The notes beneath the pieces are model-generated. The model was given only the letters and a program-made list of their open reading frames with translations. It was not told where the DNA came from and made no database searches. A DNA stretch of 57,865 nt, from the IMG/VR virus record IMGVR_UViG_3300030101_004515, positions 1 to 57,865 of that record. One strand, 5' to 3'. Position 1 is the first letter of the stretch, and each line of letters opens with the position of its first letter. Origin of the DNA: a virus. Taxonomy: Duplodnaviria; Caudoviricetes. The translations under genes were made by a program, and so were the position numbers. This document shows, in pieces, positions 313 to 16,400 of this stretch.

Positions 313-314
313 AT

Positions 315-683
315 ATGGAAAAAACAAAAAAGTACGAGTGGCTTACTGAAGCAGAACAAACCGCTCACGATTATAGAAAAGACTGTATTGATACAGTAGT
401 TACCGATATTAACTGGGAACTTATGAGTGATGATTATGAGTTCGAGGAGTGGCATATCGGCGACCACATAAACTCTTATGTAGAGAATGCGTGTATATAT
501 TCATGGGACTGCAAAGAAATCTTGAAGAAGCTTAACTACGATATATGGTCTGACGACCCAATGACAGGCGAAAGAGCTAACAGTGAGATGCAAGCAGCGA
601 TATGGGCGCTAGAAGGCGCGTTGTATGACAGCGATATAGAGGGACAAATAAAGAATGAATTAAACCTGAAGAGTGATGGATAG
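315..683 (+). CDS. acidic early protein, possible Ocr-like DNA mimic
   Basis: Likely start is ATG 315 (MEKTKK) downstream of the motif; very D/E rich; HINSYVENACIYSWD resembles the Ocr core. Confidence 0.6.
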   Translation: MEKTKKYEWLTEAEQTAHDYRKDCIDTVVTDINWELMSDDYEFEEWHIGDHINSYVENACIYSWDCKEILKKLNYDIWSDDPMTGERANSEMQAAIWALEGALYDSDIEGQIKNELNLKSDG

Positions 684-906
684 AGAGCTAATAGAAATGG
701 ATATTAAAGAAGCAATCGGAAAGGTTGTAGATACATTAGAAAATCACAATTCTGATGCGTGGAGACCTGAGGGGTTTATGGACGGCAGAATACACGACTT
801 AATACAAGACGCAATAACAAGTGCTATACACTCTATTGCCGACGATTTAGCTTATAAGTTTAAAGTTGGTAATTATGCAAACGAACCTAACACGGAAGAT
901 GAATGA
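676..906 (+). CDS. hypothetical acidic protein
   Basis: ORF track 673..906; ATG at 676 overlaps the end of the upstream gene. Confidence 0.7.
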   Translation: MDRELIEMDIKEAIGKVVDTLENHNSDAWRPEGFMDGRIHDLIQDAITSAIHSIADDLAYKFKVGNYANEPNTEDE

Positions 907-914
907 TATTATAG
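882..914 (+). promoter_or_regulatory. promoter-like motif copy 2 (CGAACCTAACACG-N10-GATATTATAG)
   Basis: Repeat motif located upstream of the tRNA. Confidence 0.7.
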
Positions 915-1020
915 TTGTTAATTAGGTTTATAGTTTAACAATGAGTAATTGTCAGGCGGCATGAAGCAAAACGGCGATATAAAAAGGCAATGCCTGATTC
1001 GCCCTTTACTCTAATAATAT

Positions 1021-1092
1021 AGCGACGTGGAGAAGTGGTATCTTGCTGGGCTCATAACCCAGAGGTCGGCGGTTCGAGTCCGCCCGTCGCAA
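1021..1092 (+). tRNA. initiator tRNA-fMet (anticodon CAT)
   Basis: Full cloverleaf: acceptor AGCGACG/CGTCGCA with 1:72 mismatch, D stem GAGA/TCTT (A11-U24), anticodon arm CTGGG-CTCATAA-CCCAG with three G-C pairs, T arm GGCGG-TTCGAGT-CCGCC; CCA is not encoded. Confidence 0.95.
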
Positions 1093-1094
1093 CT

Positions 1095-1334
1095 ATGAGA
1101 AAAGTAAGCAAAGAAGTTTTACTAATAGATAGTAAAGCAATAAAACAAATCTCGTATGACCGAGAGAAAAGAATACTACTGGTATTGTTTCAGAATGGCA
1201 CTATGTATTCATATTGGAAAGTACATGTGCGTACATTTCAACGGTTGCGTAATAGCTACTCGATAGGAAAGTTTTATAACAGGAATATAAAAAATAAATA
1301 CAGTTATACAAAACAAACAGTAAAAGTAATATAA
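1095..1334 (+). CDS. KTSC-domain protein (79 aa)
   Basis: SKAIKQISYD...LLVLFQNGTMYSYWKV...SIGKFYNRNIKNKY matches the KTSC pattern; start is ATG 1095, after the tRNA. Confidence 0.85.
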   Translation: MRKVSKEVLLIDSKAIKQISYDREKRILLVLFQNGTMYSYWKVHVRTFQRLRNSYSIGKFYNRNIKNKYSYTKQTVKVI

Positions 1335-1618
1335 TGAAAAAAACAGGATTAGTAGATTTTCATGCAAACGACCCCGTTAGTTGTTTTAAAAGAATGATGG
1401 AGTCTTGTTATTGCTATGGAGGTTTAACTAAAAGTAATAAGTATATATTAGAATATAAAGATGAGTTAGGTGAAGACACATGGAATGCGGTTTATAGTGA
1501 CTATAGCAAATGGCTAAAAGATAACTATACCGTAGAACATAATGTTGGCACAGATAATGAAGGATTATCTTATAATAGGTTAATACCAAGACTTGATAAT
1601 ACTAATGATGATATATGA
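1334..1618 (+). CDS. hypothetical protein
   Basis: ORF track; TAATG stop/start coupling with the upstream gene. Confidence 0.7.
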   Translation: MKKTGLVDFHANDPVSCFKRMMESCYCYGGLTKSNKYILEYKDELGEDTWNAVYSDYSKWLKDNYTVEHNVGTDNEGLSYNRLIPRLDNTNDDI

Positions 1619-1920
1619 AAGCAGAAGACTTTGGGTTTTCGCGTGACGAGTTAGACCAAATAGATAACATAGCCGCACAGTTTTTCAAAGAGGAATACTT
1701 CAGAGAAGAGCGTGCTGGTTATACCATGACGATATATGAATTAGTAGACCTGATTCATACTAAGTTACATCAAGATGAAACCACACTTATTAACGAAAAG
1801 CTGGATTTACTTGATAAGTTCCACCAAAATAAGTATATTCGTGCGGTAATCTACACTTCACTAGTACAGATTAGCAAAACAATTTACGAATATTATCTAA
1901 AAGATAAGTATGGAAGATAA
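1615..1920 (+). CDS. hypothetical protein
   Basis: ORF track; ATGA overlap with the upstream gene. Confidence 0.7.
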   Translation: MKAEDFGFSRDELDQIDNIAAQFFKEEYFREERAGYTMTIYELVDLIHTKLHQDETTLINEKLDLLDKFHQNKYIRAVIYTSLVQISKTIYEYYLKDKYGR

Positions 1921-2080
1921 ACCATGTTGCGTTTGCGGCAGACAATATGACGGAGAAGGACACAATCCTGACCCCCTCGTAATGACGGGAAGGTGCTGCA
2001 CTGCGTGTAATGTTACTGTTGTAATTCCTGCTCGTATATCACTTCACTATTTAGGAAAGGGAGATAGGCCGCGTGCCTAA
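1910..2080 (+). CDS. small Cys-rich zinc-binding phage protein (56 aa)
   Basis: Manual translation MEDKPCCVCGRQYDGEGHNPDPLVMTGRCCTACNVTVVIPARI...; the CxxC...GHNPxP...CCxxCN..VIPAR pattern recurs in phages. Confidence 0.7.
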   Translation: MEDKPCCVCGRQYDGEGHNPDPLVMTGRCCTACNVTVVIPARISLHYLGKGDRPRA

Positions 2081-2104
2081 CGTCGCATGACAATAGACTG
2101 CTAA

Positions 2105-2137
2105 CGGACCCGACACGAATGCCAAACGATATAATAG
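2105..2137 (+). promoter_or_regulatory. promoter-like motif copy 3 (CGGACCCGACACG-N10-GATATAATAG)
   Basis: Intergenic repeat motif upstream of ATG 2154. Confidence 0.7.
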
Positions 2138-2153
2138 GCAAATAAGTTTATAT

Positions 2154-2333
2154 ATGAAAAAAAGTAAAAACATAAGCACTACGCTTACAGACGCGCTACT
2201 TAATATAGTAGCTGAAAAACACTTCGATAAGAAGTATGACGAGCTCGATTTGTTCCAAAAGAACCATTGCGCTAAGTATGTATTGAGTTACATAAACGAG
2301 ACTGATGCGCTTAAAACCGAAATAGAGCTATGA
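2154..2333 (+). CDS. hypothetical protein (59 aa, MKKSKNIST...)
   Basis: Manual ORF; ATGA coupling to the next gene. Confidence 0.6.
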   Translation: MKKSKNISTTLTDALLNIVAEKHFDKKYDELDLFQKNHCAKYVLSYINETDALKTEIEL

Positions 2334-2773
2334 GTTACACTAAACACGACTATCCAATCCACAAGCTTCCGCAGCCGGAGGACCATGTGAAGGCGGTAAA
2401 GGAATACTTTGGCGCAACGGTTATTGTTGAAGATGACATATACAATGGCAAGTACAAAAACTGGTGTATATACATATCAGAGGAAACAATGGACGGTACT
2501 CTCTTGCATTATACCACGAGAGATACCTCTAGGTGTACGTATGTAGGTAGCATGACTAACGACGCTACTGATTTGTGGGACGAGTTAGAAGAAGATATAA
2601 GAGGCGGCAACGACGTTGTTGTATATACGTGGTTTGCAGATGAATTACACAACGGCGGCACTGCAGAAGACATATGCCGTGAGGTATGGGACTATGCTTG
2701 CGCGGACTCTCGCGTAGACGAGGAAAAGAACGCTAAGTTAAATTTAAGTAATATTGAAATAGATGAGAATTAA
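2330..2773 (+). CDS. hypothetical acidic protein
   Basis: ORF track, 147 aa. Confidence 0.75.
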   Translation: MSYTKHDYPIHKLPQPEDHVKAVKEYFGATVIVEDDIYNGKYKNWCIYISEETMDGTLLHYTTRDTSRCTYVGSMTNDATDLWDELEEDIRGGNDVVVYTWFADELHNGGTAEDICREVWDYACADSRVDEEKNAKLNLSNIEIDEN

Positions 2774-2996
2774 TATAAAACCAACACCGTCAGCAATGCT
2801 TTTCAACAAACGAAAGGCGTTGCATACGGCGTACGTCGGCAACCGCGTTATGGAATTGCATGACGAGATTAGCCGTATAACATTTAATATCGACCGTAAT
2901 CCGACTGCTGACGCGAATGAAATAATTGATGAAATCAAAAATAAATTGTGGTTTATGAGAAAGTATCAGCGTTATTACAGGCTGCTGAGAACGTGA
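2763..2996 (+). CDS. hypothetical protein
   Basis: ORF track, 77 aa, overlaps the upstream stop. Confidence 0.65.
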   Translation: MRINIKPTPSAMLFNKRKALHTAYVGNRVMELHDEISRITFNIDRNPTADANEIIDEIKNKLWFMRKYQRYYRLLRT

Positions 2997-3030
2997 CAAT
3001 AGGTACAATAATTAATATAGTAGCAGGCTA

Positions 3031-3705
3031 ATGTCGCACGAACGAAAGTTTGAATACTTAACTAATAATAGAATAGTTTATAGGCGTGACCCAGTATCTG
3101 ATAAACCAGATGAAGAAACACCACACTATAAGTTATATAATATTGGTACACACGAGTGTTATGAATTATTTAGAAGTAAAGCAAAGATTACGACGTTTAA
3201 ATCTTTGAAGTGGCATTTGCTTGTATTACTATATTTAAACGATCATCTTACTAAAACTATGTTTTTAAAATTAGGAAAGCACATAACGAACAAATCAAAT
3301 GGTTTTATTACATTCGTAATAGAAGAGAACAGGTTAGTAACAATAGTTGACGACGTATGGGCTCAGGATTTAGATAAACCGCCGAAGAATAGATTAAGAA
3401 AAATTATATTCAAAGACAACTGCGGTTTAAATAGAATTGAAAAGCTTAAGCTTGTAGGAAAAGTATTAGGTCGAGGAAAGAAAGCAAGCGAGAGTGATAT
3501 ATACGAAGCGATGCTATACATGCACGACGTCGGTAAAAAAATTACTGTAAGTTCATTAGCTACTCAACTACAAGTAACTACACGTACTATCTTCAGAAAC
3601 ATGAGTGATTCTTTAAAAGAAGAGAAACACCGAATGAACGATGAAACATTACAGCATACTAAACTACATACGTTACAAAGAAGAATTAACAGAAAGGTTA
3701 TTTGA
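3031..3705 (+). CDS. DNA-binding protein with C-terminal HTH (regulator or replication initiator)
   Basis: ITVSSLATQLQVTTRTIFRNM is a helix-turn-helix signature. Confidence 0.7.
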   Translation: MSHERKFEYLTNNRIVYRRDPVSDKPDEETPHYKLYNIGTHECYELFRSKAKITTFKSLKWHLLVLLYLNDHLTKTMFLKLGKHITNKSNGFITFVIEENRLVTIVDDVWAQDLDKPPKNRLRKIIFKDNCGLNRIEKLKLVGKVLGRGKKASESDIYEAMLYMHDVGKKITVSSLATQLQVTTRTIFRNMSDSLKEEKHRMNDETLQHTKLHTLQRRINRKVI

Positions 3706-4402
3706 AGAATGCTGCAACTCAGAAACATCACGAGAAGACTTAATACTATGCGCAAGACCTCTAGTAGAAGCAGTAGCATGGAAGTTTGTACTGACGTACC
3801 AAGCGTCGGGGGTGATGTCGATACTAGATCTAATACAGGAAGGTACAATAGGTTTGATAAACGCCGTAGACAGAATAGATTGGGACAAAGTTTATGGGAC
3901 AGCGAAACCGGGAGAAGAACCGCTTATGGTAAAAGGGTTCTTAAAAAAAAGAATAAAGGGTTCGATCAGAAGAGCGATAGACATAAACAGGGGAAGCATG
4001 AGAATACCGGAACACAGGTTAAACGAAATCAGAAAGAACAGCAGCAACAAAGAGATGGTAAAAGTTTTCTTCGACAGTATATTTGTAAGCTTAGACGTAA
4101 ACACTTCAACGGACAGCAATATATTACTACAAATACCCGACAGCTCAACCACATACAACATAAATATTCTCAATCAATATTTGATGGGACTGATGAGAAT
4201 GCACCTAACTCAACTAGAATACAACGTATTACGAATGAGTTATGGTTTAGATTGCGACAAACTCAGCGCAAAAGAAATATCAGAAAAGTTGGATATAAAA
4301 GGTTCAGCATCTTACGTAAGAGTATCACAAATAAAAAAAGACGGGATAGACAAGCTTATAAAAAACGTAGAGCCAGAACAAGTTGTAGATTATTTAGGAT
4401 AA
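3641..4402 (+). CDS. phage-encoded sigma70-family RNA polymerase sigma factor
   Basis: Region 2 DLIQEGTIGLINAVDRID and IRRAIDINRGSMRIPEH; region 4 EYNVLRMSYGL...SAKEISEKL...VRVSQIKKDGIDKL. Confidence 0.9.
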   Translation: MKHYSILNYIRYKEELTERLFEECCNSETSREDLILCARPLVEAVAWKFVLTYQASGVMSILDLIQEGTIGLINAVDRIDWDKVYGTAKPGEEPLMVKGFLKKRIKGSIRRAIDINRGSMRIPEHRLNEIRKNSSNKEMVKVFFDSIFVSLDVNTSTDSNILLQIPDSSTTYNINILNQYLMGLMRMHLTQLEYNVLRMSYGLDCDKLSAKEISEKLDIKGSASYVRVSQIKKDGIDKLIKNVEPEQVVDYLG

Positions 4403-4404
4403 CC

Positions 4405-4437
4405 CGAGCCAGACACGAGTAATCATTGATATATATA
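4405..4437 (+). promoter_or_regulatory. promoter-like motif copy 4 (CGAGCCAGACACG-N10-GATATATATA)
   Basis: Directly after the sigma gene stop and upstream of the recombination genes. Confidence 0.7.
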
Positions 4438-4439
4438 AC

Positions 4440-4556
4440 ATGTATGAATACGAAAAAAAAGTGAAAGCTATATTGTTAATCGCTGATACATTAAACGATT
4501 ACGAAATACTTAAGCTTATTAAAAAGTTAAACAAAAGAGTTCAAACAGATGACTAA
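4440..4556 (+). CDS. small hypothetical protein (38 aa)
   Basis: Manual ORF MYEYEKKVKAILLIAD...; fills the gap between motif copy 4 and the next gene. Confidence 0.45.
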   Translation: MYEYEKKVKAILLIADTLNDYEILKLIKKLNKRVQTDD

Positions 4557-4962
4557 ATCAGAATTATTAAATAATTTATATAAAAAGTATGGTCTTGACA
4601 AAGAAGATACTTTTAGAAGTCCACAAGGTTGGACTATAATTACAAGAGCGGGTATTGACAAGATACAAGCTCAAGCGGATATTGATATTACATACGACTG
4701 TATAGAGTATACTCCGGGCGTTTCAGCTGCTGTAAAAGCAAGTGCTGAATGGAACAGTAGAAAATTAGAAACTTATGGTGAAGCTAATGAGAAGAATTGT
4801 AGACAAAGCTACGTGCTAGCAATGGCAGAAAAAAGGGCTATGTCAAGAATTACTCTTAAATTAACGGGATTTTATGCGTTAGGCGCATTTGGGGAAGACG
4901 AGTCAGAAGACTTTAAAAGACCAAAGCAAATAACAGAAGATCATGTTAAAATGACACTATAA
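4549..4962 (+). CDS. putative single-strand annealing/recombination protein
   Basis: AMAEKRAMSR...FGEDESEDF motif; adjacent to an exonuclease and SSB as in phage recombination modules. Confidence 0.6.
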   Translation: MTKSELLNNLYKKYGLDKEDTFRSPQGWTIITRAGIDKIQAQADIDITYDCIEYTPGVSAAVKASAEWNSRKLETYGEANEKNCRQSYVLAMAEKRAMSRITLKLTGFYALGAFGEDESEDFKRPKQITEDHVKMTL

Positions 4963-5693
4963 TGCAAAGAAAAAAAATTCTTGAAATGCTTGAAGACGAC
5001 GACCAATACTATAACGGTATAGGTCGTGAGTTTTTAAGCAACAGTAATATATCTACTTTACAGAACGATCCCACTAAACTGAAAGAGCCTACCCCTAATC
5101 ACATTAATTTTGTTATAGGTAGGTATGTCCACACCGCTATACTTGAACCCAATAAATTAAAAAACTTTAAAATTATTGAGTCAAGCACAAGAAATACAAA
5201 AAAATATAGAGAGCTATCAGAAGGTGAAATATGTTTACTACAACACGAGGTGGACAAGATTGAGAACATGGTAGAGAAGATAGAAAAGAATAAATACTTT
5301 ACTGAGCTAATAGCGGGAATGAACATTGAATATGAAGTTCCTAATATAATGCAGCTAGAGGATTTATGGTGGAAATGCAAGGCTGATATTGTAAACCACG
5401 ACGACAAGCTTATCGTTGATTTAAAAACGACAAGCGATATTAATTTATTCAAATCGAGATGTAGAAAATATAACTACGACAGTCAGGCTTATATATACTC
5501 CTCGATGTTCGGTTACGAATTTATATTTTTAGTAATTGATAAGAATACATTAAAGACAGGTATTTTTGAATGCTCAACCGAATTTTACGAGTCGGGTCAA
5601 CGCAAAGTAAAGGAAGCGTCAGAAATATATAAATTGTTTTATGAAACAGAAAACTTTGACCCAAACCAATATTTTATAACCAAAACATTATAA
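4962..5693 (+). CDS. RecE/exonuclease VIII-like PD-(D/E)XK nuclease
   Basis: LSNSNI, GRYVHTAILEP, KCKADIV...IVDLKTT, YDSQAYIY motifs. Confidence 0.85.
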   Translation: MQRKKILEMLEDDDQYYNGIGREFLSNSNISTLQNDPTKLKEPTPNHINFVIGRYVHTAILEPNKLKNFKIIESSTRNTKKYRELSEGEICLLQHEVDKIENMVEKIEKNKYFTELIAGMNIEYEVPNIMQLEDLWWKCKADIVNHDDKLIVDLKTTSDINLFKSRCRKYNYDSQAYIYSSMFGYEFIFLVIDKNTLKTGIFECSTEFYESGQRKVKEASEIYKLFYETENFDPNQYFITKTL

Positions 5694-5694
5694 T

Positions 5695-6015
5695 ATGGCA
5701 GGAATTTTAAAAGGAAACCTAGATGTTACCAAGATACCAAAGGATAAAATCTATAATGGTAAAAAGGGTAAATACATTCCCGTTGTTATTGCAATCAACA
5801 ACGAAGTGGATCAGTTTGGTCATAACGGTTCAGTAACCGTAGACCAATCAAAAGAAGAGCGCGACGCAAAAGAGCCTAAGGTTTATTTAGGAAACATAAA
5901 AGTCGTATGGACAGACGGTGAAGCAATGCCCGCTGCACAACAGCAGGGACAAGCTCAGCCATCTCCAGTTTCTCAAACGGCTGCTGCGCCGACAGATGAT
6001 GATCTTCCGTTCTAA
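5695..6015 (+). CDS. putative single-stranded DNA-binding protein
   Basis: Q/P/A-rich linker and acidic C-terminal DDDLPF tail; gene context. Confidence 0.7.
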   Translation: MAGILKGNLDVTKIPKDKIYNGKKGKYIPVVIAINNEVDQFGHNGSVTVDQSKEERDAKEPKVYLGNIKVVWTDGEAMPAAQQQGQAQPSPVSQTAAAPTDDDLPF

Positions 6016-6017
6016 TA

Positions 6018-6050
6018 CGAGATCAACACGAAGCAGCTATGATATAACAA
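6018..6050 (+). promoter_or_regulatory. promoter-like motif copy 5 (CGAGATCAACACG-N10-GATATAACAA)
   Basis: Intergenic, upstream of the primase-helicase. Confidence 0.65.
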
Positions 6051-6095
6051 TCGACAAACAATAATGTTAGTCATAATATTTATTTATTCATTTTT

Positions 6096-7820
6096 ATGTT
6101 CAATACGGTAGAGGTTAATGGTTTTTATGTGGATAAGTTCAACCAGTATAATCTACCGGTAGGTAAAGCGGAGAGTGTTTGTCCTCTCTGCTCTCACCTG
6201 CGTAAGCCAGAAAACAGAAAAAAGAAATGTGCAAGCTTAGACTGGGAAAGAGGTTTAGGTACTTGCCATAATTGCAATAAAACATTCCAGCTACATACTT
6301 ACCAAAGAAAAGGTGGTTCGGATATAGAATACAAAAGACCAGCTTACGATACAAAAACGCATAAGCCCGTGCAAAGCAAGGTTCTTAAATGGTTTGAATC
6401 GAGAGGTATATCTAAAAAAACAGTTGAGGATTTAAATATTTCAGAGGGACCAGAGTATATGCCGCAAACTGGAAAGGAAGAGAACACTATTAAGTTTAAT
6501 TATATGATAGGCGACCAGCTTATCAATATTAAATACAGAGACGCGAGAAAAAACTTTAAGCTTTACAAAGGTGCAGAAAAAATATTTTATAATATTAATA
6601 GTATTGTTGGTTACAATTCTTGTATTATAGTTGAAGGCGAAATGGATGTATGTGCTATACACGAAGCCGGTATTTCTAACGTAATATCAGTCCCAAACGG
6701 CGCCACACTAAACACAAACAACCTTGATTACTTAGATAATTGTATAGATTACTTTGCTGATAAAGAAAAAATTATAATAGCTGTTGATAATGATGCAGCT
6801 GGTATAGCCTTAAAACAAGAATTAATAAGAAGATTAGGCTCAGAGGTTTGTTATACTGTTGATTATGAAGAGCATAAAGATGCAAATGACGTATTGTTAG
6901 AAAGCCCTGAAAAGCTGAAATCAATTATCGATAAGGCTTTGCCTGTGCCTTTAGAAAACGTAACGACATTTAAAGACTTAGAAGATGATTTACAAGACTT
7001 TGTTAAAAACGGTTTTAAGCCGGGATTTCAGATTGGGATTAATAACTTTGATAATATCTTCAGCACTTACACTGGTCAGTTTATTACTGTTACTGGTATA
7101 CCTAGCAGCGGTAAAAGTGATTTCGTTGATCAAATGGTAATAGGCTATAATATAGGATATGATTGGAAAATAGGTTTTGCCTCTCCTGAAAACGCCCCCA
7201 CTTATTTACATGCTCATAAAATAATGCGTAAAATATGGGGCGGTATGCCTTCGCATAATGATATTGGTACTGAAAGATGGCAAGAAATATCAAATCATAT
7301 AAACAATAATTATTATTTTATAGATTTAGAAGTTCCATCACTTGAAGCAGTACTACGTAAGGGTGCCGAGCTTGTAAAGCGTAAAGGAATTAAGTGTTTA
7401 GTAATAGATCCTTTTAATAAAATAAGAGACACGAATGCTAATAGTATGGACGTAAACACATATACTTTAGAATATTTAACAAAAATAGAACAGTTTGCCA
7501 AACGTTATGATGTATTGGTAATTATAGTAGCGCATCCTACTAAAATGTATAAAGACAGTTCAGGTAAAATTGAAGAGCCTACAATGTATAACATAAAAGG
7601 AGGAGGCGAGTGGTATGACGCAAGCTATCACGGGCTGCTGGTACATAGAGATTATGAAAATAAAACAACAAAAGTTAAGGTATTAAAAGTAAAGTTTCAA
7701 AATTTAGGAGAAAACGGAGCTGAGTGTTTCTTTACGTGGGAACCGAAAAGTGGTTCTTATATACCATATATCAACGAAGAAGAAGAAGAAGTAGGGCCTT
7801 TACCGTGGGAAAATGGATAG
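6096..7820 (+). CDS. T7 gp4/Twinkle-like DNA primase-helicase
   Basis: Zn finger CPLC...CHNC, Toprim IVEGEMD and DND, Walker A GIPSSGKS, Walker B LVIDP, IVAHP motif. Confidence 0.95.
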   Translation: MFNTVEVNGFYVDKFNQYNLPVGKAESVCPLCSHLRKPENRKKKCASLDWERGLGTCHNCNKTFQLHTYQRKGGSDIEYKRPAYDTKTHKPVQSKVLKWFESRGISKKTVEDLNISEGPEYMPQTGKEENTIKFNYMIGDQLINIKYRDARKNFKLYKGAEKIFYNINSIVGYNSCIIVEGEMDVCAIHEAGISNVISVPNGATLNTNNLDYLDNCIDYFADKEKIIIAVDNDAAGIALKQELIRRLGSEVCYTVDYEEHKDANDVLLESPEKLKSIIDKALPVPLENVTTFKDLEDDLQDFVKNGFKPGFQIGINNFDNIFSTYTGQFITVTGIPSSGKSDFVDQMVIGYNIGYDWKIGFASPENAPTYLHAHKIMRKIWGGMPSHNDIGTERWQEISNHINNNYYFIDLEVPSLEAVLRKGAELVKRKGIKCLVIDPFNKIRDTNANSMDVNTYTLEYLTKIEQFAKRYDVLVIIVAHPTKMYKDSSGKIEEPTMYNIKGGGEWYDASYHGLLVHRDYENKTTKVKVLKVKFQNLGENGAECFFTWEPKSGSYIPYINEEEEEVGPLPWENG

Positions 7821-8265
7821 AGTAAGCAAGGAAACAAGGTCTAAGATTATGCGAAGCATAAAAGGCAAAGACACAAAGATTGAAGCGCGTCTTGCTAAAG
7901 CGCTGTGGCACAAAGGATTACGTTACCGTAAAAACAACAAGAAGATAAAAGGAAAACCTGATATTTGTTTTGCTAGTAAAAAGTTAGCTATATTTGTTGA
8001 TGGTGAGTTTTGGCACGGACACGAATGGGAAGAGAGAAAAAAGAAACTGAAGACGAACAGGGAGTTTTGGATTAGTAAGATAGAAAGAAACATGGAGAGA
8101 GATAAGGAAACAAACCAGCATCTTATAAATGAAGGCTGGTCGGTTATGAGGTTTTGGGGGAAAGATATAAACGAAAGGCTGGATCACTGCGTAGAAAAGA
8201 TTTGCGAAGCGCATGCCGGTATACATAATAAACAGACAATACAAATTCATGATGGGAAGTTATAG
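7813..8265 (+). CDS. vsr: very short patch repair (T:G mismatch) endonuclease
   Basis: MDxxSKETRSKIMRSIKGKDTKIE, GKPDI, FVDGEFWHGH, FWISKIERNMERD, GWSVMRFW are classic Vsr motifs. Confidence 0.9.
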   Translation: MDRVSKETRSKIMRSIKGKDTKIEARLAKALWHKGLRYRKNNKKIKGKPDICFASKKLAIFVDGEFWHGHEWEERKKKLKTNREFWISKIERNMERDKETNQHLINEGWSVMRFWGKDINERLDHCVEKICEAHAGIHNKQTIQIHDGKL

Positions 8266-8509
8266 CCCAACAAGACCAGAAATTAAAGCTAACGATTACT
8301 GTATTAGAAATAATATACGTATCTTTCCTGTGTGCGTACAGAATCACAAGCTTTGGAAGGTTGGCATAAACTTTGGCCCTTACAAAAAAGGCGAGAAACC
8401 TAACTTATCGCCAGACTCGTATGGACCGGGTGAAATACAAAAACAAATTTATAACGCAAGTGTTTATTACTATAATAAATACGGGGTTAATACGAAAGCA
8501 AAAGGATAA
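8213..8509 (+). CDS. hypothetical protein
   Basis: ORF track; true start may be ATG 8249. Confidence 0.6.
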   Translation: MPVYIINRQYKFMMGSYSPTRPEIKANDYCIRNNIRIFPVCVQNHKLWKVGINFGPYKKGEKPNLSPDSYGPGEIQKQIYNASVYYYNKYGVNTKAKG

Positions 8510-8516
8510 TAACAAT

Positions 8517-9320
8517 ATGATTTACGAAAAGAATTATAGAGCGCTTATAACAAGAATTGTTAAAGACGGAAACTATAGAGAAGACAGAACAGGCGTAGGA
8601 ACAAAATCTTTATTTCATCAAAGATTAAATGTTAATATAAGCGCAACAAAAAAATTAGGTCAAGAAAAAATAGAAGGCGATAACTTTCCAATTTTAAACG
8701 GAAAGCATATGAGTCAAAACATATTTGACACAGAGTTTGAGTGGTTTATGAACGGCGAAACAAATATTCAAAGATTTAAAGATAATAATGTAACCATATG
8801 GGACAACTGGGCGACACCTGAGGGCGATTTAGGCCCTGTTTATGGCTATCAACTAAGAAATTTTAATGGACAAGGAATTGATCAATTAAAACAATTAATA
8901 GACGGCATAAATAAAGATAGGCACGGAAGACGTCATATAATTAGTTTGTGGAACCCCGCGATGATACAAGATATGGCATTACCGCCTTGCTATTTATATT
9001 TCCAATTTTATATAAACCACGGAATGATAAGCATGTTTGTGGTTCAGAGATCCGGTGATATGTTTTTAGGTGTTCCATATGATGTTTGTTTGTTTGCTAA
9101 AATATTATTATATGTAGCTTCTGAAACAAATACAGTTCCAAAAAACATTGACATATCTATTATAGACGCGCATATATATTTAAATCATTTTGATGCAGTA
9201 AAAGAATATATGAACAACACGGATTATAAAGATGGGGCAAAGTTTACATATCAAAGCGGAAGGCTTACGTTAAAAAATTATAAGCCGGGACCAAAAATTA
9301 AAGCGCCGGTAGCAGTATGA
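8517..9320 (+). CDS. thyA: thymidylate synthase-family enzyme with dCMP-type specificity residue (candidate dCMP methylase)
   Basis: DRTGVGT, IWDNWA, GDLGPVYG, RR..SLWNP, ALPPC, QRSGDMFLGVPYD, DAHIYLNH, C-terminal KAPVAV; start at ATG 8517. Confidence 0.93.
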   Translation: MIYEKNYRALITRIVKDGNYREDRTGVGTKSLFHQRLNVNISATKKLGQEKIEGDNFPILNGKHMSQNIFDTEFEWFMNGETNIQRFKDNNVTIWDNWATPEGDLGPVYGYQLRNFNGQGIDQLKQLIDGINKDRHGRRHIISLWNPAMIQDMALPPCYLYFQFYINHGMISMFVVQRSGDMFLGVPYDVCLFAKILLYVASETNTVPKNIDISIIDAHIYLNHFDAVKEYMNNTDYKDGAKFTYQSGRLTLKNYKPGPKIKAPVAV

Positions 9321-10072
9321 AATATTACCTGTATCACATTCCCGGTAAAAAAATTGGCGTCACAACCAATGTACTGAAACGCGTAACTAAAGTACAAGGT
9401 TTTAAATCAGGCGAGTATGAGATTCTACTTAGCTCTGACGATATAAACTATATATCAGATAAAGAAAGAGAACTGCAAAAAAAGTTCGGATACAAGGTGG
9501 ACATAACACCATACAATCAATTACTTATGAGAAAAAAAGAAATGAAAATAAACGTTACAGAGCAGACCACTACGTTTCCTTGTCCTCGTGTTCATTTAGC
9601 AGACGCGCTATTAGAAAACGACGGGATGATTTGGGAAACAACTTTAGGTCAGTTTGAAAACACGGAGCTAACAAGAACGTGGATATTAGCTAATGCTAAA
9701 AAGTCTATGTTCAATAACGAAAAATGTTTTATATACAATAAAGCATACTATGAAGAATTTCTATTCCAAACCAACGGAAGAAATATCTTTGATAGAATAC
9801 GCGCGTGGGCAAAAGAAAGAAACATTTACACGCACGGTGATATTAAAACGCAGCTACTTAAACTTTACGAAGAGGCCGGCGAATTGTCTCAGGCTGTTTT
9901 AAAAGAAGACAAGCAGGAAACTGTAGACGCCATAGGCGATTGTGTTGTTGTTTTAACTAACTTATCTGAGCACTTAGGCGTTAATATAGAAGAATGTATT
10001 GAACACGCTTACGATCAGATTAAGGCAAGAAAAGGTAAAATGGTAAACGGAACATTTGTAAAAGATGAGTAA
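9317..10072 (+). CDS. fusion of GIY-YIG-like N-terminus and MazG-like nucleotide pyrophosphohydrolase
   Basis: N-terminal YYLYHIPGKKIGVTTNVLKR...ERELQ; C-terminal IRAWAKERN...KLYEEAGEL...DAIGDCVVVL. Confidence 0.8.
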   Translation: MKYYLYHIPGKKIGVTTNVLKRVTKVQGFKSGEYEILLSSDDINYISDKERELQKKFGYKVDITPYNQLLMRKKEMKINVTEQTTTFPCPRVHLADALLENDGMIWETTLGQFENTELTRTWILANAKKSMFNNEKCFIYNKAYYEEFLFQTNGRNIFDRIRAWAKERNIYTHGDIKTQLLKLYEEAGELSQAVLKEDKQETVDAIGDCVVVLTNLSEHLGVNIEECIEHAYDQIKARKGKMVNGTFVKDE

Positions 10073-10316
10073 AAAAGAATTTGATTTTAGAGACCCTATC
10101 ATACAAAAAGTTGTAGAAAAGTTTATATCAAGATCTGACGTAGGCTATAGCAAATATAAAGTAACGCTAGAACAAGACAGCAAATCTATTAACGAGTGGC
10201 TTAACAATATACAAGAAGAGCTAATGGATGCTGTAAACTATATTGAAAAGCTTAAATCTGTTTTGGCTGACGAGCTTCAAGAAGTTTTGCTTAAGAACTA
10301 TCATGAGAAAGATTAG
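10065..10316 (+). CDS. small all-alpha NTP pyrophosphatase-like protein
   Basis: RSDVGYSKY...WLNNIQEELMDAVNY (EExxD metal-binding helix). Confidence 0.6.
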   Translation: MSKKEFDFRDPIIQKVVEKFISRSDVGYSKYKVTLEQDSKSINEWLNNIQEELMDAVNYIEKLKSVLADELQEVLLKNYHEKD

Positions 10317-10785
10317 ACGCAGCAAGAAGCGCGGCCCCGTAGTATCAAAAAAAGTAACATATGACGGAATTAATTTTGCTTCAGGTTTAGAAAAATATAT
10401 GTATATTGCATTAAAGCAAAACGGTATAAAAGCTGTTTACGAAAACCGAACTTTTGTTTTAATTCCTGGATTTTACTTTGATAGCCAAAGCTATGAAAGA
10501 ACAGCGAACGCTAAGGGCGAATATAAGGATAGGGGTATGAAAAGTATTCAACCGATCAAGTATACGCCTGATTTTGAGGGAGAGGGATTTATAATAGAAT
10601 GTAAGGGTAGAGCTAACGAAACGTTTTCTATGCGGTGGAAATTGTTTAAAAAACACATAACAGAACAACTTCCGGGTATTGTACTTTACAAGCCCCAAAA
10701 CCAAAAAGAATGCGACAAAACAGTGGAGCTAATATTAGAGTCTCAAAAGCGATTGCGAGACAAAAATATAGAGAAAGACAAATAA
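10303..10785 (+). CDS. PD-(D/E)XK endonuclease, T7 endonuclease I/resolvase-like
   Basis: FASGLE...YE...YTPDF...IIECKG; start at ATG 10303. Confidence 0.8.
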   Translation: MRKIRRSKKRGPVVSKKVTYDGINFASGLEKYMYIALKQNGIKAVYENRTFVLIPGFYFDSQSYERTANAKGEYKDRGMKSIQPIKYTPDFEGEGFIIECKGRANETFSMRWKLFKKHITEQLPGIVLYKPQNQKECDKTVELILESQKRLRDKNIEKDK

Positions 10786-10883
10786 ATAAGTACGTTAACT
10801 GGGCGATAGAGAGCAGGGGATATTTAAAATGGAAAGAGATTGAGGCTATTCACGATAAGTATAACGTAAAAGTATATGGCTAG
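10710..10883 (+). CDS. hypothetical protein (57 aa)
   Basis: Manual ORF MRQNSGANIR...KYNVKVYG that fills the gap. Confidence 0.45.
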   Translation: MRQNSGANIRVSKAIARQKYRERQINKYVNWAIESRGYLKWKEIEAIHDKYNVKVYG

Positions 10884-11013
10884 AAGAAACATTACATACA
10901 CATATATAGAGCGACCTAAAAAAAGAAGGCCGGGCGTTCACGCTAAAACAAAAACCAGCGGGCTGAAGTCTAGCAAGTATTACAAGAAAAAATATAGGGG
11001 GCAGGGAAGATGA
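10876..11013 (+). CDS. small basic protein ending YRGQGR (45 aa)
   Basis: Manual ORF MARRNITY...KKKYRGQGR; this ending recurs in phage basic peptides. Confidence 0.6.
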   Translation: MARRNITYTYIERPKKRRPGVHAKTKTSGLKSSKYYKKKYRGQGR

Positions 11014-11165
11014 CAATTAAAAAGAACAACGTACATTGGGAGATTCATATAGGCTATTATCCGGGCATACTGTTTGGGATTAGAAGTTACAAAATGAAAG
11101 GATACGATGATCACGTGTTATATTTGCCTCTTGTAGATTTTTGTTTAACCATATATAAAAAGTAA
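11010..11165 (+). CDS. small hypothetical protein (51 aa)
   Basis: Manual ORF with ATGA coupling, MTIKKNNVHWEIHIGYYPGILFGIRSY... Confidence 0.55.
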   Translation: MTIKKNNVHWEIHIGYYPGILFGIRSYKMKGYDDHVLYLPLVDFCLTIYKK

Positions 11166-11166
11166 C

Positions 11167-11619
11167 ATGGAATTAACCCAAATTAAAAACATTCTAATAG
11201 ATTTATTTGACAATGATTTTAGTAAGCCAAATAGGCAAAGGCACAATGTATATCAGCGCGCGGTTTATTTCAGGCTATGCCGAGATCTTACACCTTATGC
11301 CCTAACAGATATTGGCGCAGTAATTAATAAGGACCACGCCTCCGTACTCCATGGGCTAAAACTGTTTAAAAACTTTAAGATTTGGGGAGAGGATATATAT
11401 CTTTCGATTTATAAGCAGGCTAGACTAAAGCTAAAGCAAAAGTATGGGTTTGCTAACCCGCACGCAAACATGACAGTTGAAGAGAGATACAGGGAACTTC
11501 TTATGCACCATATAATTCTAAAAGAAAAATATCACAAAACAAAGAAAGAGTTAGAAAAAATTCGTAATTTTAATGTATCTGATTTTCAAACAGTTAGTAA
11601 TGGGATATACAATAGATGA
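11167..11619 (+). CDS. DnaA C-terminal (domain IV) HTH-like protein
   Basis: RQRHNVYQRAVYFRLCRDLTPYALTDIGAVINKDHASVLHG resembles DnaA R..R..AM.L..ELT..SL..IG..F..RDHTTV.H. Confidence 0.8.
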   Translation: MELTQIKNILIDLFDNDFSKPNRQRHNVYQRAVYFRLCRDLTPYALTDIGAVINKDHASVLHGLKLFKNFKIWGEDIYLSIYKQARLKLKQKYGFANPHANMTVEERYRELLMHHIILKEKYHKTKKELEKIRNFNVSDFQTVSNGIYNR

Positions 11620-11830
11620 TATAGAAAAGATAGCGGCTTTTAAGTCTTGGTCAAAAAAAAGAAAGATCGATACACTTCTTGAAATAGACGCGGATTTATA
11701 TTGTAACTTAGGGATGGAGTCAAGCAGAAGCGAAGTAGAAGCCATTAAAGTGCAGTCAAGAAAAATATACAGGCTTATAAAAACAATAGACGAATACGAT
11801 GGTAAAATGCTATTAAGAAACGAACGATGA
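11600..11830 (+). CDS. hypothetical protein
   Basis: ORF track 11573..11830; likely start ATG 11600. Confidence 0.65.
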   Translation: MGYTIDDIEKIAAFKSWSKKRKIDTLLEIDADLYCNLGMESSRSEVEAIKVQSRKIYRLIKTIDEYDGKMLLRNER

Positions 11831-12018
11831 AGTTTATTGACTACGTTATGTGTTTTTTTATTATATTGTTGTTTATAACAGTGGCTTCATGCAGTAAGGA
11901 AGAGGATAGGTGTGCACAGTATGACTTACAAGATGAGGAACTTTTAAATGAGTGTGTTGATGGTGTTTGCACACAGATTGTTCAGGTGACAACAACATGT
12001 ATAACTTATGAACAATGA
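11827..12018 (+). CDS. small lipoprotein
   Basis: Hydrophobic signal, VASC lipobox, then SKEED. Confidence 0.7.
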   Translation: MKFIDYVMCFFIILLFITVASCSKEEDRCAQYDLQDEELLNECVDGVCTQIVQVTTTCITYEQ

Positions 12019-12581
12019 TTTATATAAAAGATAATTTTTTACCGTTAAATCTTTATAACCAATTAATTAGCTTTTGTGATAAATTTACAGAGATCAAATA
12101 TCCCGATAAATCTTTTTGGGTTAAAGAATTACCTAAAGAGTTTGAATATTATATGATCAGTGAATTAGAAAAATTAGAAAATAAAAAAATAAATAATATA
12201 TTAGCTTTTGCAAGAGAAGCTAAGCAAAATCAAGATAACGATTGGCGCATACATAATGACACTATAATTGAAGGGCAACAACCTGATAGAGCTGTCGTAT
12301 TGTTTGTAAAAGCAAAAGAGGATAAATTAAACGGAACAGCTTTTTGGGAGCATAAAGAGTATGGGCATACGTATATTAAATCAGATAACGAAGAGTTTAA
12401 TCGTATGCTATTAGAAGACGCAAATGATGAATCAAAATGGAAATTAAATTCTGTAATAGGGTATAAGGACAACAGATTACTGTCTTACCCGTGTAATTAT
12501 TTCCATAGTAAATATCCTAATGAATACATGGACCAAAGAATAGTAGTGGTAATGTTTTATAAAATAGATGAAAGAGAGTAA
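12015..12581 (+). CDS. 2OG-Fe(II) oxygenase-superfamily protein
   Basis: IKDNFL start, HxD (IHND), GTAFW, NRLLSY...FHS facial-triad pattern, terminal R..V.F. Confidence 0.8.
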   Translation: MIYIKDNFLPLNLYNQLISFCDKFTEIKYPDKSFWVKELPKEFEYYMISELEKLENKKINNILAFAREAKQNQDNDWRIHNDTIIEGQQPDRAVVLFVKAKEDKLNGTAFWEHKEYGHTYIKSDNEEFNRMLLEDANDESKWKLNSVIGYKDNRLLSYPCNYFHSKYPNEYMDQRIVVVMFYKIDERE

Positions 12582-12771
12582 ATTAATATTGATGGCAAAA
12601 AACGTTTTGCGCTTAGAAGAAACAGTAGACACGCTCATTAGAGAACTTATGCGCACGCAGAATATACAGATGGGTATTTTAGAGACAATGAAGAGAATGC
12701 CCGACTATCAGGAGGCTTTGGATAAATTGAAAAAAGATAATGCTGAAGCTGAAAAAGAAAAGAATACTTAA
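12568..12771 (+). CDS. hypothetical coiled-coil protein
   Basis: ORF track; last + strand gene, abutting the converging arm. Confidence 0.65.
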   Translation: MKESKLILMAKNVLRLEETVDTLIRELMRTQNIQMGILETMKRMPDYQEALDKLKKDNAEAEKEKNT

Positions 12772-13431: not shown

Positions 13432-16400
13432 TTAGTCTTCAATTCCTAGCTCCCAGCCTGACCACCCTAAGAAAAGCGCTATTCTTGTCCAAGCACTTAA
13501 ATCTTCCCGTGATGCGTCTGCTAGGTTTTCTATTTTTCTTTGCAGCCTGTCCGCTGGTATGTTGGCTATGGCAAGCGCGTTTATAGCCGCTTCTACTGAA
13601 GGAGGAATATTGCTTTCGTATTTGCCCGCTTCAATAATCGCCTTCAACTTCCTTACCTTGTGATCTATTGGAGGTGCAATATCTGTAGTAGCTAAAAGAA
13701 CGTTTGACCAGTCTTTGAAAAATTCATTTTCTTTTTGCTGTTCTTTATAGTATGCAATACCAGCATTTTTTAGCATTGAAATAAGAGCTCCCGAATATCC
13801 AAGCCCTCTTAATACAGAGTCAGCCATACCGTTAACTATACGTTCTTCTTTCTTGTCAATTTTACTCTGTCTTATTTCTTTTGCTCTTCTAGTAAGTTTT
13901 CTGCCTTGGTATTCATCTTCCTCGCTAAAGTCTAATGCAAAATACGCGCTTTGTAAAGTATTAAATATTATATTCTGTACAGCCATATAATACGTTATCT
14001 TAGACACATTTGTTTTTACATCTCCCCTGCCATTAACTAAATCACTTATTGCTCGTTTAGTTAATCTTGTATATTGGAAAGGTGTATTAGCGAACGCAAA
14101 TACTACACGGCCAAAATTATTCGCTTGTACGTTTGAAATACGCGCGGGATCTGATGATTGTTGAGACTCATTTGAAATTTGTCTCCAGTCTTCATAAGAT
14201 TTTTTTTCTGCTTGTTCTTGAGTAAATCCTTTTTTAACATAACTATTAATTCTGTTTCTATAAAACGCAGAACCTCCAGAAGCAATAGCAACGCTATCCA
14301 TAATTTGCGTAGGTAAAAACCCAATTTTTAACATGTGCGCAATCACAGCTTTTACAGGATTTTTGCTTTTTGCGGCCTCAGCTATTTCCGCTTCTTGTAC
14401 ATTGATTTTTAATCCTTGTCTTCTATTAGTCAAGTAATCCGAATTCATTAAAAACATAAAGTCTTTTGCAAACTGTTTTGGGTTGGCTAATGCTTTTGCT
14501 ACCATTAAAGGGTTGTTGTCACTCCAATTTAAATAGTTTATAGCAGAAATAGATTGAAGCGTTGCGGAACGCATGTTAAAAGACATTATAGTACCAACCG
14601 AACCATTTATAAAGTCTTGTGTTATATTAGCCGCGTCGCTATTAGTAGGCTTTCTATTTACTCCTGACTTCATTCTACCAATAACCATTTCTAAATTTTT
14701 AACATAACTTGGCCCAAAAGCGGCAGTAAGTTTTGCTTTGTTTTTATCATTAAAAATAAGATCAATATTGTGTTGCCATTTTTTTAAATACTTTGGTCTT
14801 TTGTTTTGATTTAAAGTTTGTGCAAAATCACTTCCTATTTTTCCCGCTTCCCAGTTTTCTTCAGGTTTAGGATAACCATCTGTTTTGTTAGCAGCCATCA
14901 AACCAAAAGCAAAACTTCTAAGCTCTTTGTTGTCTGCTACAATTTTTGATAACTTATCTGCTCTCTTTTTTGTTATACCGGGAATGTCGTAATTTGACTG
15001 TTGCCAAACAAAAACACGAACAGCATCTTCTATTGTAAAGTTTTTCACTCCTTCTTCCGTAAGGTTTTCCCTTAATTTAAAAGGTGCTTTTTTAATTCTA
15101 GCTTTGATTTGTCTGTAAGCATTAAACATAGATCTTCTATCCGTTTCTAAATCGGATATACCTTGTGAATATGTGTCAAGTAGGTTTTCTTTAAGAAACT
15201 TTAAGTCTTTGTTTCCCTGCTCTCCTTTGCCTGCTATTTTTTGTATCAAACCATAAAAATCTTCTGCGCTGTACGGTAAAAATATATTCCAGTCATTGCC
15301 ATAAAAAAACTTTCTTTCTGTTTCTTTTCCTAGCCTTCTTGCTAAAGCTAAATCTTTTGCGCTCTTTATTTCTTTTGCTTTGACATTCTTTCTATCAATC
15401 ATGTCTGCCAGCTCTGCTGGTTTACTTCTTGTTTTTGAAAACTTAATATATAATTTATTATTAGCTTCGTCTATTGCGCTTGCATCAAACACCTGCGCAT
15501 TAAGACCCTTATTTAAATCATAAGTATCACCCTCAGTTAAAGCTATTCCGCTTTCAATAGGAATAATATCACCCTCGTCTAATACATTTTGAAACCTAGA
15601 AGTAACGTAATTTTGATTTGGCAAACCAAATTTTCCATTTATAGCGTCCATACTCGTAGAACTTTTTATATCTCCATGAATTTTATCTACTATAAAAACT
15701 CCATTCGTAGCAAACATTTTGTCTATGGCTCTTTCTAAAATTCTTCTTCCTTTTCTGCCTCCCGTTATATATGCTGCTAAAAAGTTATCGCCATCCTGCT
15801 CTAACATAAAATCATTAGCAAGCTTTTCTATTTGTTTTGCATGCTCAGCATAAGGCTCCGTAATATTTTTTTCTACATGTGTTATAGCTGCAGATTCTCT
15901 CATAGGAGTGTAAGTTGTGCCCCCCTTAAACATCATAGATTGAAACCTGTTTGCAAATTTCATAGCCATTTGTTCATTACCTGTCCCTCTATAGCTTTCT
16001 ACAAAGTCATAAAGCGATAGCATAATTCTTTTATACTGGGGTCTTACTATAGATGTTACTTCATTATTATGAGCATTTATTTCAGTAAGATCGCCGTCAG
16101 TTGCTTTTGCTGCAATTTTGTCTATACCTTTTCTTTTAATTTGTTCCGTGCCAGCAAAGGTTGATAACAATTTTCTTGTTCTTTCAACACCATCAATTTG
16201 TCCAAGATCTGAATTTATATTCAATTTAGTGTTTAAGTTATTATCAAAATCTGAAGCAAGCTCTTCGCCTACCATTTGCTTGAACACATTTTGTCTCAAT
16301 GGGCCCGTACGCAAATCAGCGTCTGTTAAATACGCGTTTGCAAATTCAAATAAAATATTTTCATACTCGTCATTTCTTAATTTTGATTTTTTTGCAGACG

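Follow-up and report, generated by a model that had tools for sequence, protein, structure and literature searches.

A candidate pre-replicative 5-methylcytosine module in marine phages of Flavobacteriia, with a host-type vsr gene inserted in one lineage

Introduction

Phage Xp12 (GenBank MT664984) offers a documented route to DNA containing 5-methylcytosine (5mC) without a DNA C5-cytosine methyltransferase (C5-MTase). Its key enzyme, a member of the ThyA family of thymidylate synthases (TS), carries Asp177, Cys146 and Asp169 (residues of TS enzymes are numbered by alignment to E. coli ThyA throughout). We analysed a comparable gene set in the window, by which we mean the whole stretch of DNA studied, record IMGVR_UViG_3300030101_004515 of IMG/VR (57,865 bp, linear, 91% complete according to CheckV). 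There, a vsr gene, a ThyA homologue with Asp at position 177 and a gene for a protein with a MazG domain lie behind the gene of a primase-helicase. An earlier note on this DNA had taken these genes, along with a second MazG-like gene, for one system in which 5mC is made at the nucleotide level and Vsr repairs the lesions that follow from it. Our results lead us to a narrower proposal, in which the TS homologue and the MazG fusion make up the module and vsr is an addition.

The enzymology of such TS homologues has been described in some depth. Replacement of Asn177 by Asp is reported to turn ThyA from dUMP to dCMP, which yields 5-methyl-dCMP (5mdCMP), and the MetaGPA association study names 177 and 147 as the two positions with the strongest link to cytosine modification of metavirome contigs (PMC8670742). 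The nature of the product is said to depend on residue 143, where a bulky hydrophobic side chain gives a methyl and Asp or Glu a hydroxymethyl group, and D169N is given as the mark of the 5-hydroxy-dCMP synthases (PMC13326640). Five of seven Asp-type TS homologues tested, and the Xp12 enzyme as well, are reported to have produced 5-methyldeoxycytidine in vivo (bioRxiv 10.1101/2024.12.05.627091). Engineered dCMP methylases, E. coli ThyA N177D and L. casei TS N229D, are described as canonical ThyA scaffolds with a single specificity switch. In T4, dCTP is depleted by the dCTPase gp56, dCMP is modified by the TS homologue gp42, and the triphosphate is incorporated after the action of the dNMP kinase gp1; the phage brings its own kinase and polymerase.

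The locus described here resembles each of these systems in part. With Xp12 it has in common the three residues named above in a ThyA-family enzyme and a route that needs no C5-MTase. With the MetaGPA-type contigs it shares the changes at positions 177 and 147 and a neighbouring domain of PRA-PH/MazG type (PMC8670742; bioRxiv 10.1101/2024.12.05.627091); however, a linked deaminase was reportedly the ground on which those contigs were selected, and a polymerase of family A is present on many of them, whereas the window clade has neither. The scheme of T4 would be followed in outline, yet neither a kinase nor a polymerase was found in the window clade. The novelty of such a route had been put too high in the earlier note: methyltransferase-independent 5mC made through a TS homologue was already established for Xp12, and Asp177 homologues had already been tied to cytosine-modified metavirome contigs and reported to make 5mdCMP (bioRxiv 10.1101/2024.12.05.627091). 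What is new here is the clade: ThyA-like, with a MazG fusion and an otherwise minimal architecture that leans on the host, to which one lineage adds a host Vsr.

Results

Residue signature of a predicted 5-methyl-dCMP synthase

The open reading frame (ORF) of the TS homologue spans 8373-9320, and its conserved start at 8517 (MIYEK...) gives a protein of 267 aa. The protein was aligned to E. coli ThyA (from NC_000913), with which it is 36% identical, to the Xp12 TS, to T4 gp42 and to 150 cluster representatives; L. casei TS entries of the PDB are also among its sequence matches. The earlier note was right in calling it a ThyA homologue with the Asp of dCMP-type enzymes, as it matches the TS family of Pfam strongly (Table 1) and has Asp at the position of E. 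coli Asn177. Its score is 201.7 with NCBIfam TIGR03284, above the cut-off of 108.35, and 229.9 with PRK01827, below the cut-off of 327. The signature reads E58 W80 Y94 L143 C146 Y147 R166 D169 Y176 D177 H207 Y209, in which the catalytic Cys146, Arg166, Tyr94 and Glu58 are all present. The protein also keeps the ThyA-type C-terminus, KAPVAV, the part of ThyA that closes over the folate.

The active site differs from that of E. coli ThyA at three positions, N177D, H147Y and F176Y, and has the same Leu143. Asp and Tyr thus stand in place of the canonical Asn177 and His147. As the alignment is free of gaps over the stretch 143-147 (MALPPCY in the window, MALAPCH in E. coli ThyA), the residue calls around it are robust. 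All the residues expected of a 5mdCMP synthase are found, namely Asp177, a hydrophobic and non-acidic residue at 143, and a retained Asp169. Leu143 takes the place of the acidic residue of T4-type dCMP hydroxymethylases, and Asp169 that of the Asn of 5-hydroxy-dCMP synthases such as RB69 gp48. Because D177, L143 and D169 agree with the published rules, the ThyA homologue is predicted to be a 5mdCMP synthase. The earlier suggestion that it methylates dCMP is therefore supported by its residues, which form the published signature of such an enzyme.

Asp177 is no chance feature of the window enzyme: of the best 120 homologues, 118 reach across this column and all of them have it, and the remaining two are truncated there. 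In the wider family the residue varies, with 118 Asn, 28 Asp, two gaps, one Pro and one Ser among the best 150 representatives of clusters at 50% identity, and the four closest of these representatives have the full L143/Y147/D169/Y176/D177 signature in common. The Xp12 enzyme is more divergent, being 30% identical to E. coli ThyA and devoid of the ThyA C-terminus; we therefore regard the window TS, on sequence grounds, as part of a separate ThyA-like lineage of Asp-type enzymes. T4 gp42, with 23% identity to E. coli ThyA, no ThyA C-terminus and an acidic residue 143, is likewise unlike it. In contrast to the engineered enzymes, the change at 177 is natural here, has become fixed across a large clade and goes together with H147Y and F176Y.

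The TS and MazG fusion genes form a conserved module

Scanning IMG/VR with the TS sequence gave 40 loci. In 27 of them (L001-L027, TS identity 48-97%) the gene lies in a module of conserved order, primase-helicase, orf98, TS, MazG fusion and orf83, while the other 13 have only a distant TS. The TS and MazG fusion genes are adjacent in all 27, the primase-helicase gene serves as the anchor of the module, and the gene of a DUF1064 nuclease marks the downstream end of the conserved run (Table 1). The locus with the most module genes missing is a contig of 4.4 kb. In the window, the genes are indeed packed closely after the primase-helicase gene as first noticed, all on one strand, head to tail, overlapping and directly behind it. 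orf98, whose conserved start is probably the pair of Met codons at about 8246-8249, had no match in Pfam, PHROG or NCBIfam.

The MazG fusion is a protein in three parts. Its sequence passes the Pfam cut-offs for PRA-PH (27.1 bits; cut-off 21.3) and MazG (25.4 bits; cut-off 22), and an AF2 model of it has a pLDDT of 86. Residues 152-251 match 13 chains of MazG or HisE type with VIA Z scores of 8.3-10.8, and the Foldseek matches of the protein include MazG, HisE, DCTPP1 and the MazZ of S-2L. Glu185, Glu186, Glu189, Asp204 and Asp208 are invariant in 20 MazG-fusion sequences; these residues fit E-x2-E ... (E/D)-x2-D, which we take to be the acidic metal-binding motif of MazG. Since these acidic residues are invariant, the domain is probably active. 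At the other end of the protein, the first ~70 aa (9317-9530) show a conserved pattern, Y-x2-Y ... KKIGVT ... R ... E, and the Atlas neighbours of residues 1-150 are T5orf172, MUG113 and SegE_GIY-YIG. A domain of the GIY-YIG superfamily fused N-terminally to MazG is suggested, as a lead only; the Foldseek and VIA lists of the fusion protein were taken up by its MazG domain, and a profile search of the PDB likewise returned MazG only. If this domain is a nuclease, it would parallel the degradation of cytosine DNA by T4. The middle domain is conserved and has no assigned family.

Of the two MazG-like genes that had been proposed, the first thus stands, with a C-terminal MazG domain seen both by hidden Markov model (HMM) and in the structural model, whereas the second, orf83, found support in none of our tests. 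The orf83 product had no match in Pfam or NCBIfam and no named one in PHROG, aligned to a MazG alignment with an hhalign probability of 0.5%, and gave nothing relevant in a phmmer search of the PDB; AF2 models it as a hairpin of two helices (pLDDT 70.9), for which Foldseek gave no match. Its EExxD-like stretch (E51, E52, D55) is seen by eye only, and its invariant residues are R9, D10, R23, S24, G27, K30, Y31, W45, Q50-A56 and Y59.

One locus departs from the common arrangement. On the 4.1-kb contig L026 (686-2245, + strand), the TS and the homologue of the MazG fusion are joined in one frame as a protein of 519 aa, from which the C-terminal residues of the TS and ~25 residues at the beginning of the GIY-YIG-like motif are missing. 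This fusion, seen in one of the 27 loci, may be a natural deletion and fusion, or else a defective or misassembled copy.

The complement of other genes was examined in 25 records, the window and 24 related ones, of which 11 are at least 90% complete and two have terminal repeats. No C5-MTase was found in any of the 25. For the window, PF00145 gave no match in six frames at E <= 10, which bears out the earlier observation; the window is the whole record, at an estimated completeness of 91%. Neither a dCMP-deaminase-family gene nor a DNA polymerase of family A or of family B was found in the 25 records. As the earlier note had also stated, no kinase and no polymerase came to light in the window, by family scans and by a scan for P-loop (Walker-A) motifs. 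The neighbourhood thus differs from that of the Xp12 TS gene, which adjoins a dCMP-deaminase-family gene and genes for a dihydrofolate reductase and a HAD hydrolase; the partner in the window clade is the MazG fusion.

vsr is a recent insertion

The assignment of the vsr gene made from the sequence was correct. Its product matches the Vsr family of Pfam (E 1.1e-31; 108.9 bits against a cut-off of 27) and TIGR00632 (161.5 bits against 97.85), and it aligns with the structure of E. coli Vsr (1CW0) with an E of 3e-20 over residues 5-120. In the 1CW0 alignment it keeps the residues corresponding to E. coli D51, F67, W68, H69, W86 and D97; we take Asp51, His69 and Asp97 to be the catalytic and Phe67, Trp68 and Trp86 the intercalating residues of the E. 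coli enzyme. The gene product is accordingly a predicted T:G mismatch endonuclease of the very-short-patch-repair type. Glu and Trp occupy the positions of the E. coli zinc ligands Cys66 and Cys73; as the same is true of all 120 nearest homologues, this replacement is a trait of the subfamily. The nearest relatives form a cluster at 93% identity with 61 members; next, at 60-63%, come Vsr proteins from the chromosomes of Flavobacterium and Chryseobacterium, which points to a Flavobacterium-like host group. We also considered a divergent, Vsr-like homing endonuclease, and set it aside on account of the match to TIGR00632 and of the similarity to chromosomal Vsr. By its family HMM and its catalytic and intercalating residues, the protein is like the bacterial enzymes V.EcoKDcm of E. 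coli and V.NgoAXIII of Neisseria, the latter being reported to act independently of sequence context (PMC6116569). It is unlike them in being encoded by a phage, in two replaced zinc ligands, and in the lack of a C5-MTase in the same genome, so that the partnership with a Dcm-type enzyme, customary for the family though no part of its definition, is missing.

The position of the gene tells something of its history. In the relatives L001, L003 and L005, the stop codon of the primase-helicase gene is followed after ~20 nt by orf98, whereas a DNA alignment shows ~400 extra bases in the window. The insertion, absent from these relatives, covers about 7816-8190, with its left edge at the stop codon of the primase-helicase gene. 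The vsr ATG lies inside the last codons of that gene, and the tail of Vsr beyond about residue 125 (the last ~30 codons) is read from ancestral intergenic sequence and sequence upstream of orf98. A contig of 524 nt from a run of another study (X4 record 5) covers 7644-8167 without a single difference and bridges the left junction; together with the 61-member cluster, it shows that the insertion is not an artefact of assembly. In runs X7 and X8 the flanks are covered and vsr is without cover, which is not evidence of absence. A weak trace of Vsr in record G001 (12.5 bits, three stops) was not reproduced by tblastn at E <= 20 and was taken as noise. From this evidence vsr is a recent, lineage-specific insertion of a cellular Vsr of Flavobacterium type.

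Elsewhere in phages, Vsr is usually accompanied by a C5-MTase. Two of the three named phage Vsr loci inspected have one, as do all three of the other IMG/VR loci with Vsr homologues, whose records have no TS (0/3). A literature search that combined Vsr with 5mdCMP and dCMP-methylase topics returned, among the entries listed, no printed link between Vsr and phages with nucleotide-level 5mC.

Genome, host and surrounding genes

The window is a nearly complete genome of a podovirus-like marine phage of Flavobacteriia. The PHROGs matched by the terminase, portal and virion proteins are those of Cellulophaga- and Flavobacterium-type phages; the terminase shares 61% identity with that of an uncultured Caudoviricetes record and 44% with those of Flavobacterium phages of the elemo type and of Cellulophaga, Tenacibaculum and Maribacter phages. 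Comparison of the DNA revealed no close named phage (a blastn search with 7000-11000 gave only six tiny matches), and no TS among the INPHARED phages exceeds 39% identity to the window TS, so that no cultured member of the Asp-type clade was found there. The GC content is about 36% (range 0.32-0.42). For the stretch 6100-10800, a fraction of 0.84-0.92 of sampled words is present in marine metagenome runs from a second study, and parts of it turn up in runs from several further marine and seawater studies; this phage lineage therefore recurs in seawater.

Table 1. Features of the replication and nucleotide region of the window
Feature	Position	Strand	Evidence and remarks	Related loci (of 27)
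Replication and nucleotide operon	231-12771	+	Sigma-like factor, exonuclease, ORF like single-strand-binding protein, primase-helicase, the genes discussed here, DUF1064 nuclease, DnaA-C-like helix-turn-helix protein	
Sigma-70-like protein	3641-4402	+	Relatives 50-98% identical; region 2 and region 4 matches just under Pfam cut-offs	
Primase-helicase (Toprim and DnaB-like)	6096-7820	+	Pfam Toprim_2 1.6e-12, DnaB_C 2.1e-06; PHROG 239 4.4e-80	26 (56-97% identity)
vsr	7813-8265	+	150 aa; Pfam Vsr, TIGR00632	
orf98, small conserved protein directly upstream of TS	8213-8509	+	Homologues at the same position	25 (32-75% identity)
ThyA homologue, Asp at Asn177 position	8517-9320	+	Pfam Thymidylat_synt E 1.8e-70	27
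MazG fusion, three-part protein	9317-10072	+	251 aa; Pfam PRA-PH and MazG; PHROG 1992 4.7e-37	27
orf83, conserved two-helix protein	10065-10316	+	83 aa	26
DUF1064 / Holliday-junction-resolvase-like nuclease	10243-10785	+	Pfam DUF1064 2.2e-09; PHROG 190	26

Among cultured relatives, Cellulophaga phage phi10:1 (NC_021802 4461-20197, our locus L099) has the primase-helicase closest to that of the window (40%), and its module has the same order. In phi10:1, the place of the Asp-type TS of the window clade is taken by a small MazG and by two DNA methyltransferases, one Dam-like (PF02086) and one of PF01555. The two would be alternative anti-restriction solutions within one module frame.

Several other genes deserve mention. 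The phage has a chaperonin set, with a GroEL-like ORF (56981-57814, - strand) and an adjoining Cpn10/GroES gene (56740-56997, - strand). The record shows no terminal repeat, and its right end cuts the GroEL-like ORF, which matches only positions 279-488 of Cpn60; it is partial because the contig ends inside the gene, and this tells at which end the genome is incomplete. A second GroES-like PHROG match lies near the terminase gene (42543-43130, - strand). An ORF of 2255 aa (13432-20199, - strand) and its neighbours of 588 and 698 aa (20205-24081, - strand), situated among the virion genes, had no PHROG match at 1e-4. The product of 12015-12581 (+ strand) scores 22.7 bits with Pfam DUF6445, just under the cut-off of 24, and carries the PHROG label 'minor coat protein'. 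It is sporadic among the relatives (L001, L009 and L013 only), and the Atlas places it among large, virus-only DUF6445 clusters and no others. An H-x-D ... H pattern, seen by eye, recalls the 2-oxoglutarate/Fe oxygenases. We considered a dioxygenase acting on 5mC and dropped it, a phmmer search of the PDB having given no match and the Atlas only DUF6445 clusters; a link to 5mC oxidation is speculation.

Discussion

We propose, as a reading that we hold to be moderately likely, that the ThyA-like enzyme and the MazG fusion constitute a pre-replicative 5mC module, and that vsr is a host-derived add-on of one lineage. The TS homologue would take dCMP rather than dUMP, transferring and reducing the methylene group of methylene-tetrahydrofolate, and the product would be 5mdCMP rather than 5-hydroxymethyl- or 5-hydroxy-dCMP. 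The MazG domain would hydrolyse dCTP, and perhaps dUTP, to the monophosphate, which would feed the methylase and at the same time drain the competing dCTP. As the 25 records yielded no phage kinase, polymerase or deaminase, host kinases would phosphorylate 5mdCMP and the host replicase would incorporate it. In the phage DNA, C would then be partly or wholly replaced by 5mC, blunting restriction. A domain of PRA-PH/MazG type is reported to be in the top five co-located with TS and deaminase on modified contigs (bioRxiv 10.1101/2024.12.05.627091), a neighbourhood that fits a dCTPase role like that of T4 gp56. The MazG-fold domain is thus a candidate dCTPase, although its specificity for dCTP is something that we purely infer, given its generic similarity to phage MazG proteins and the MazG of phi10:1.

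A number of points weigh against this proposal. The chemistry of the clade, both the product and the modification of DNA, is a prediction. The weakest link is the entry of 5mdCMP into the dNTP pool: the published E. coli assays relied on a co-expressed phage kinase to bring modified dCMP into DNA (bioRxiv 10.1101/2024.12.05.627091; PMC13326640), and no such kinase was found here. Indeed, a thymidylate-kinase-like gene (PF02223) was found in none of the 25 records, a kinase like T4 gp1 likewise in none, by a search that is weak for want of a positive control, and the only Walker-A motif in a plausible ORF of the window is that of the primase-helicase. The role of the MazG domain is no firmer. 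Small MazG proteins of other phages, among them phages of Staphylococcus, Brochothrix and Bacillus, share 47-54% identity with the domain; nothing seen here suggests cytosine modification in such MazG-bearing phages. Furthermore, phi10:1 has a MazG in the same module without a TS, and the DCTPP1-type fold matches include proteins that bind 5-methyl-dC nucleotides (6sqw, 2oig); a DCTPP1-like action on these nucleotides would, in this phage, oppose the scheme. The claim that the MazG proteins deplete dCTP is accordingly not supported as far as specificity is concerned. As for Vsr, it was found in none of the 40 TS loci, no match over the cut-off came from the 24 related records (so that it is present in one of 25 genomes), and none of five TS phage records, Xp12 and four others, has it. 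Finally, a C5-MTase was seen by a crude tblastn search in the flanks of 24 of 51 Vsr homologue loci. With 27 of the 51 lacking one, an 'orphan' vsr is not rare.

These counts bear most heavily on the larger claim of the earlier note, that Vsr, the TS and two MazG proteins are one co-evolved 5mC system with Vsr as its dedicated repair arm. It is true that the genes are adjacent, overlapping and on one strand, that the catalytic residues of Vsr are intact, that the genome has no C5-MTase, and that the vsr-bearing lineage recurs, as the 61-member cluster indicates. We nevertheless regard such a system as quite improbable. The insertion is recent, the second MazG found no support, the three other viral records with Vsr have a C5-MTase and no TS, and the co-occurrence of vsr with Asp-type TS that would be expected across related phages fails in all 24 of the related records. 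Since the 24 sister genomes do without it, Vsr is an accessory at best. A different idea, that Vsr is a passenger, is possible though still doubtful in our view: the gene would be a moron or a selfish free-standing endonuclease that came from a host restriction-modification or Dcm locus, or would act on mismatches in the Dcm context of the host or on competing DNA. The precise insertion between two conserved genes is in the style of free-standing phage endonuclease genes, it occurs in one lineage only with a product closest to cellular Vsr, and a family of Vsr-like homing endonucleases is known from I-Bth0305I (PMC3239194). However, the protein is an ordinary Vsr and not of that divergent family, and its ORF is intact, coupled to the primase-helicase stop codon and recurrent in other samples.

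Other readings concern the TS itself. An Asp-type TS might serve nucleotide supply, with dCTP taken to dCMP by MazG, to 5mdCMP by the TS and to dTMP by a dCMP deaminase of the host; little or no 5mC would enter the DNA, as no kinase would accept 5mdCMP, and the route would feed an AT-rich genome. We consider this unlikely, since a canonical ThyA would be more direct, a host deaminase of Flavobacteriia acting on 5mdCMP would be required, a large clade strictly conserves Asp177, Tyr147 and Tyr176, which suggests that the dCMP reaction itself is under selection, and Asp177 homologues are reported to be enriched on contigs selected for modified cytosine (PMC8670742). Its appeal lies in the absence of a phage kinase, polymerase and deaminase from the 25 records, in the GC content of 0.32-0.42, and in the report that Xp12 deaminates part of its 5-methyl-dC nucleotide pool to thymidine nucleotides (bioRxiv 10.1101/2024.12.05.627091). 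Very unlikely, in our opinion, is a TS that makes another C5 adduct, 5-hydroxymethyl or 5-hydroxy, as the start of a hypermodification. Although Asp177 is common to T4 gp42 and the 5-hydroxy-dCMP synthases, and the sporadic DUF6445 protein and several uncharacterised ORFs lie nearby, the protein keeps Leu143, Asp169 and an intact ThyA C-terminus, and the Pfam and PHROG scans gave no glycosyltransferase, carbamoyltransferase or comparable enzyme.

Returning to a module of TS and MazG with vsr as an add-on, one may ask why the insertion was kept. Deamination of 5mC leaves a T:G mismatch, which is not seen by uracil glycosylase. An early-expressed T:G nickase would be useful in a genome with 5mC in place of every C, and this may be the reason; repair of 5mC deamination by Vsr is plausible, a weaker inference than that of the module itself. 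A stronger version, to which we give only a small chance, is that a phage with full 5mC captured a host Vsr, expressed early and coupled to the primase-helicase, which nicks T:G in any context and mends the deamination damage of the virion before replication. If this were true, it would be the first repair enzyme dedicated to a base-modified viral genome, and the sisters with and without vsr (~97% protein identity) would be a natural experiment on the mutational cost of 5mC DNA. In any case the vsr insertion gives a directly testable idea on how a phage may cope with 5mC deamination, for which the vsr-less sister genomes are built-in controls.

Should the DNA prove unmodified, the module would be an odd route of dTMP salvage and the finding an ordinary one. 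A near-canonical ThyA with the natural equivalent of the N177D switch is a clean model of specificity, and the window TS is a possible reagent for the production of 5mdCMP. If the clade does package 5mC DNA, pre-replicative methylation would require only two functions from the phage, dCMP methylation by a ThyA-like enzyme and perhaps dCTP hydrolysis. This would be a phage kit far smaller than that of Xp12 or T4, with host kinases and the host replicase doing the remainder, and the trait would extend to abundant marine phages of Flavobacteriia.

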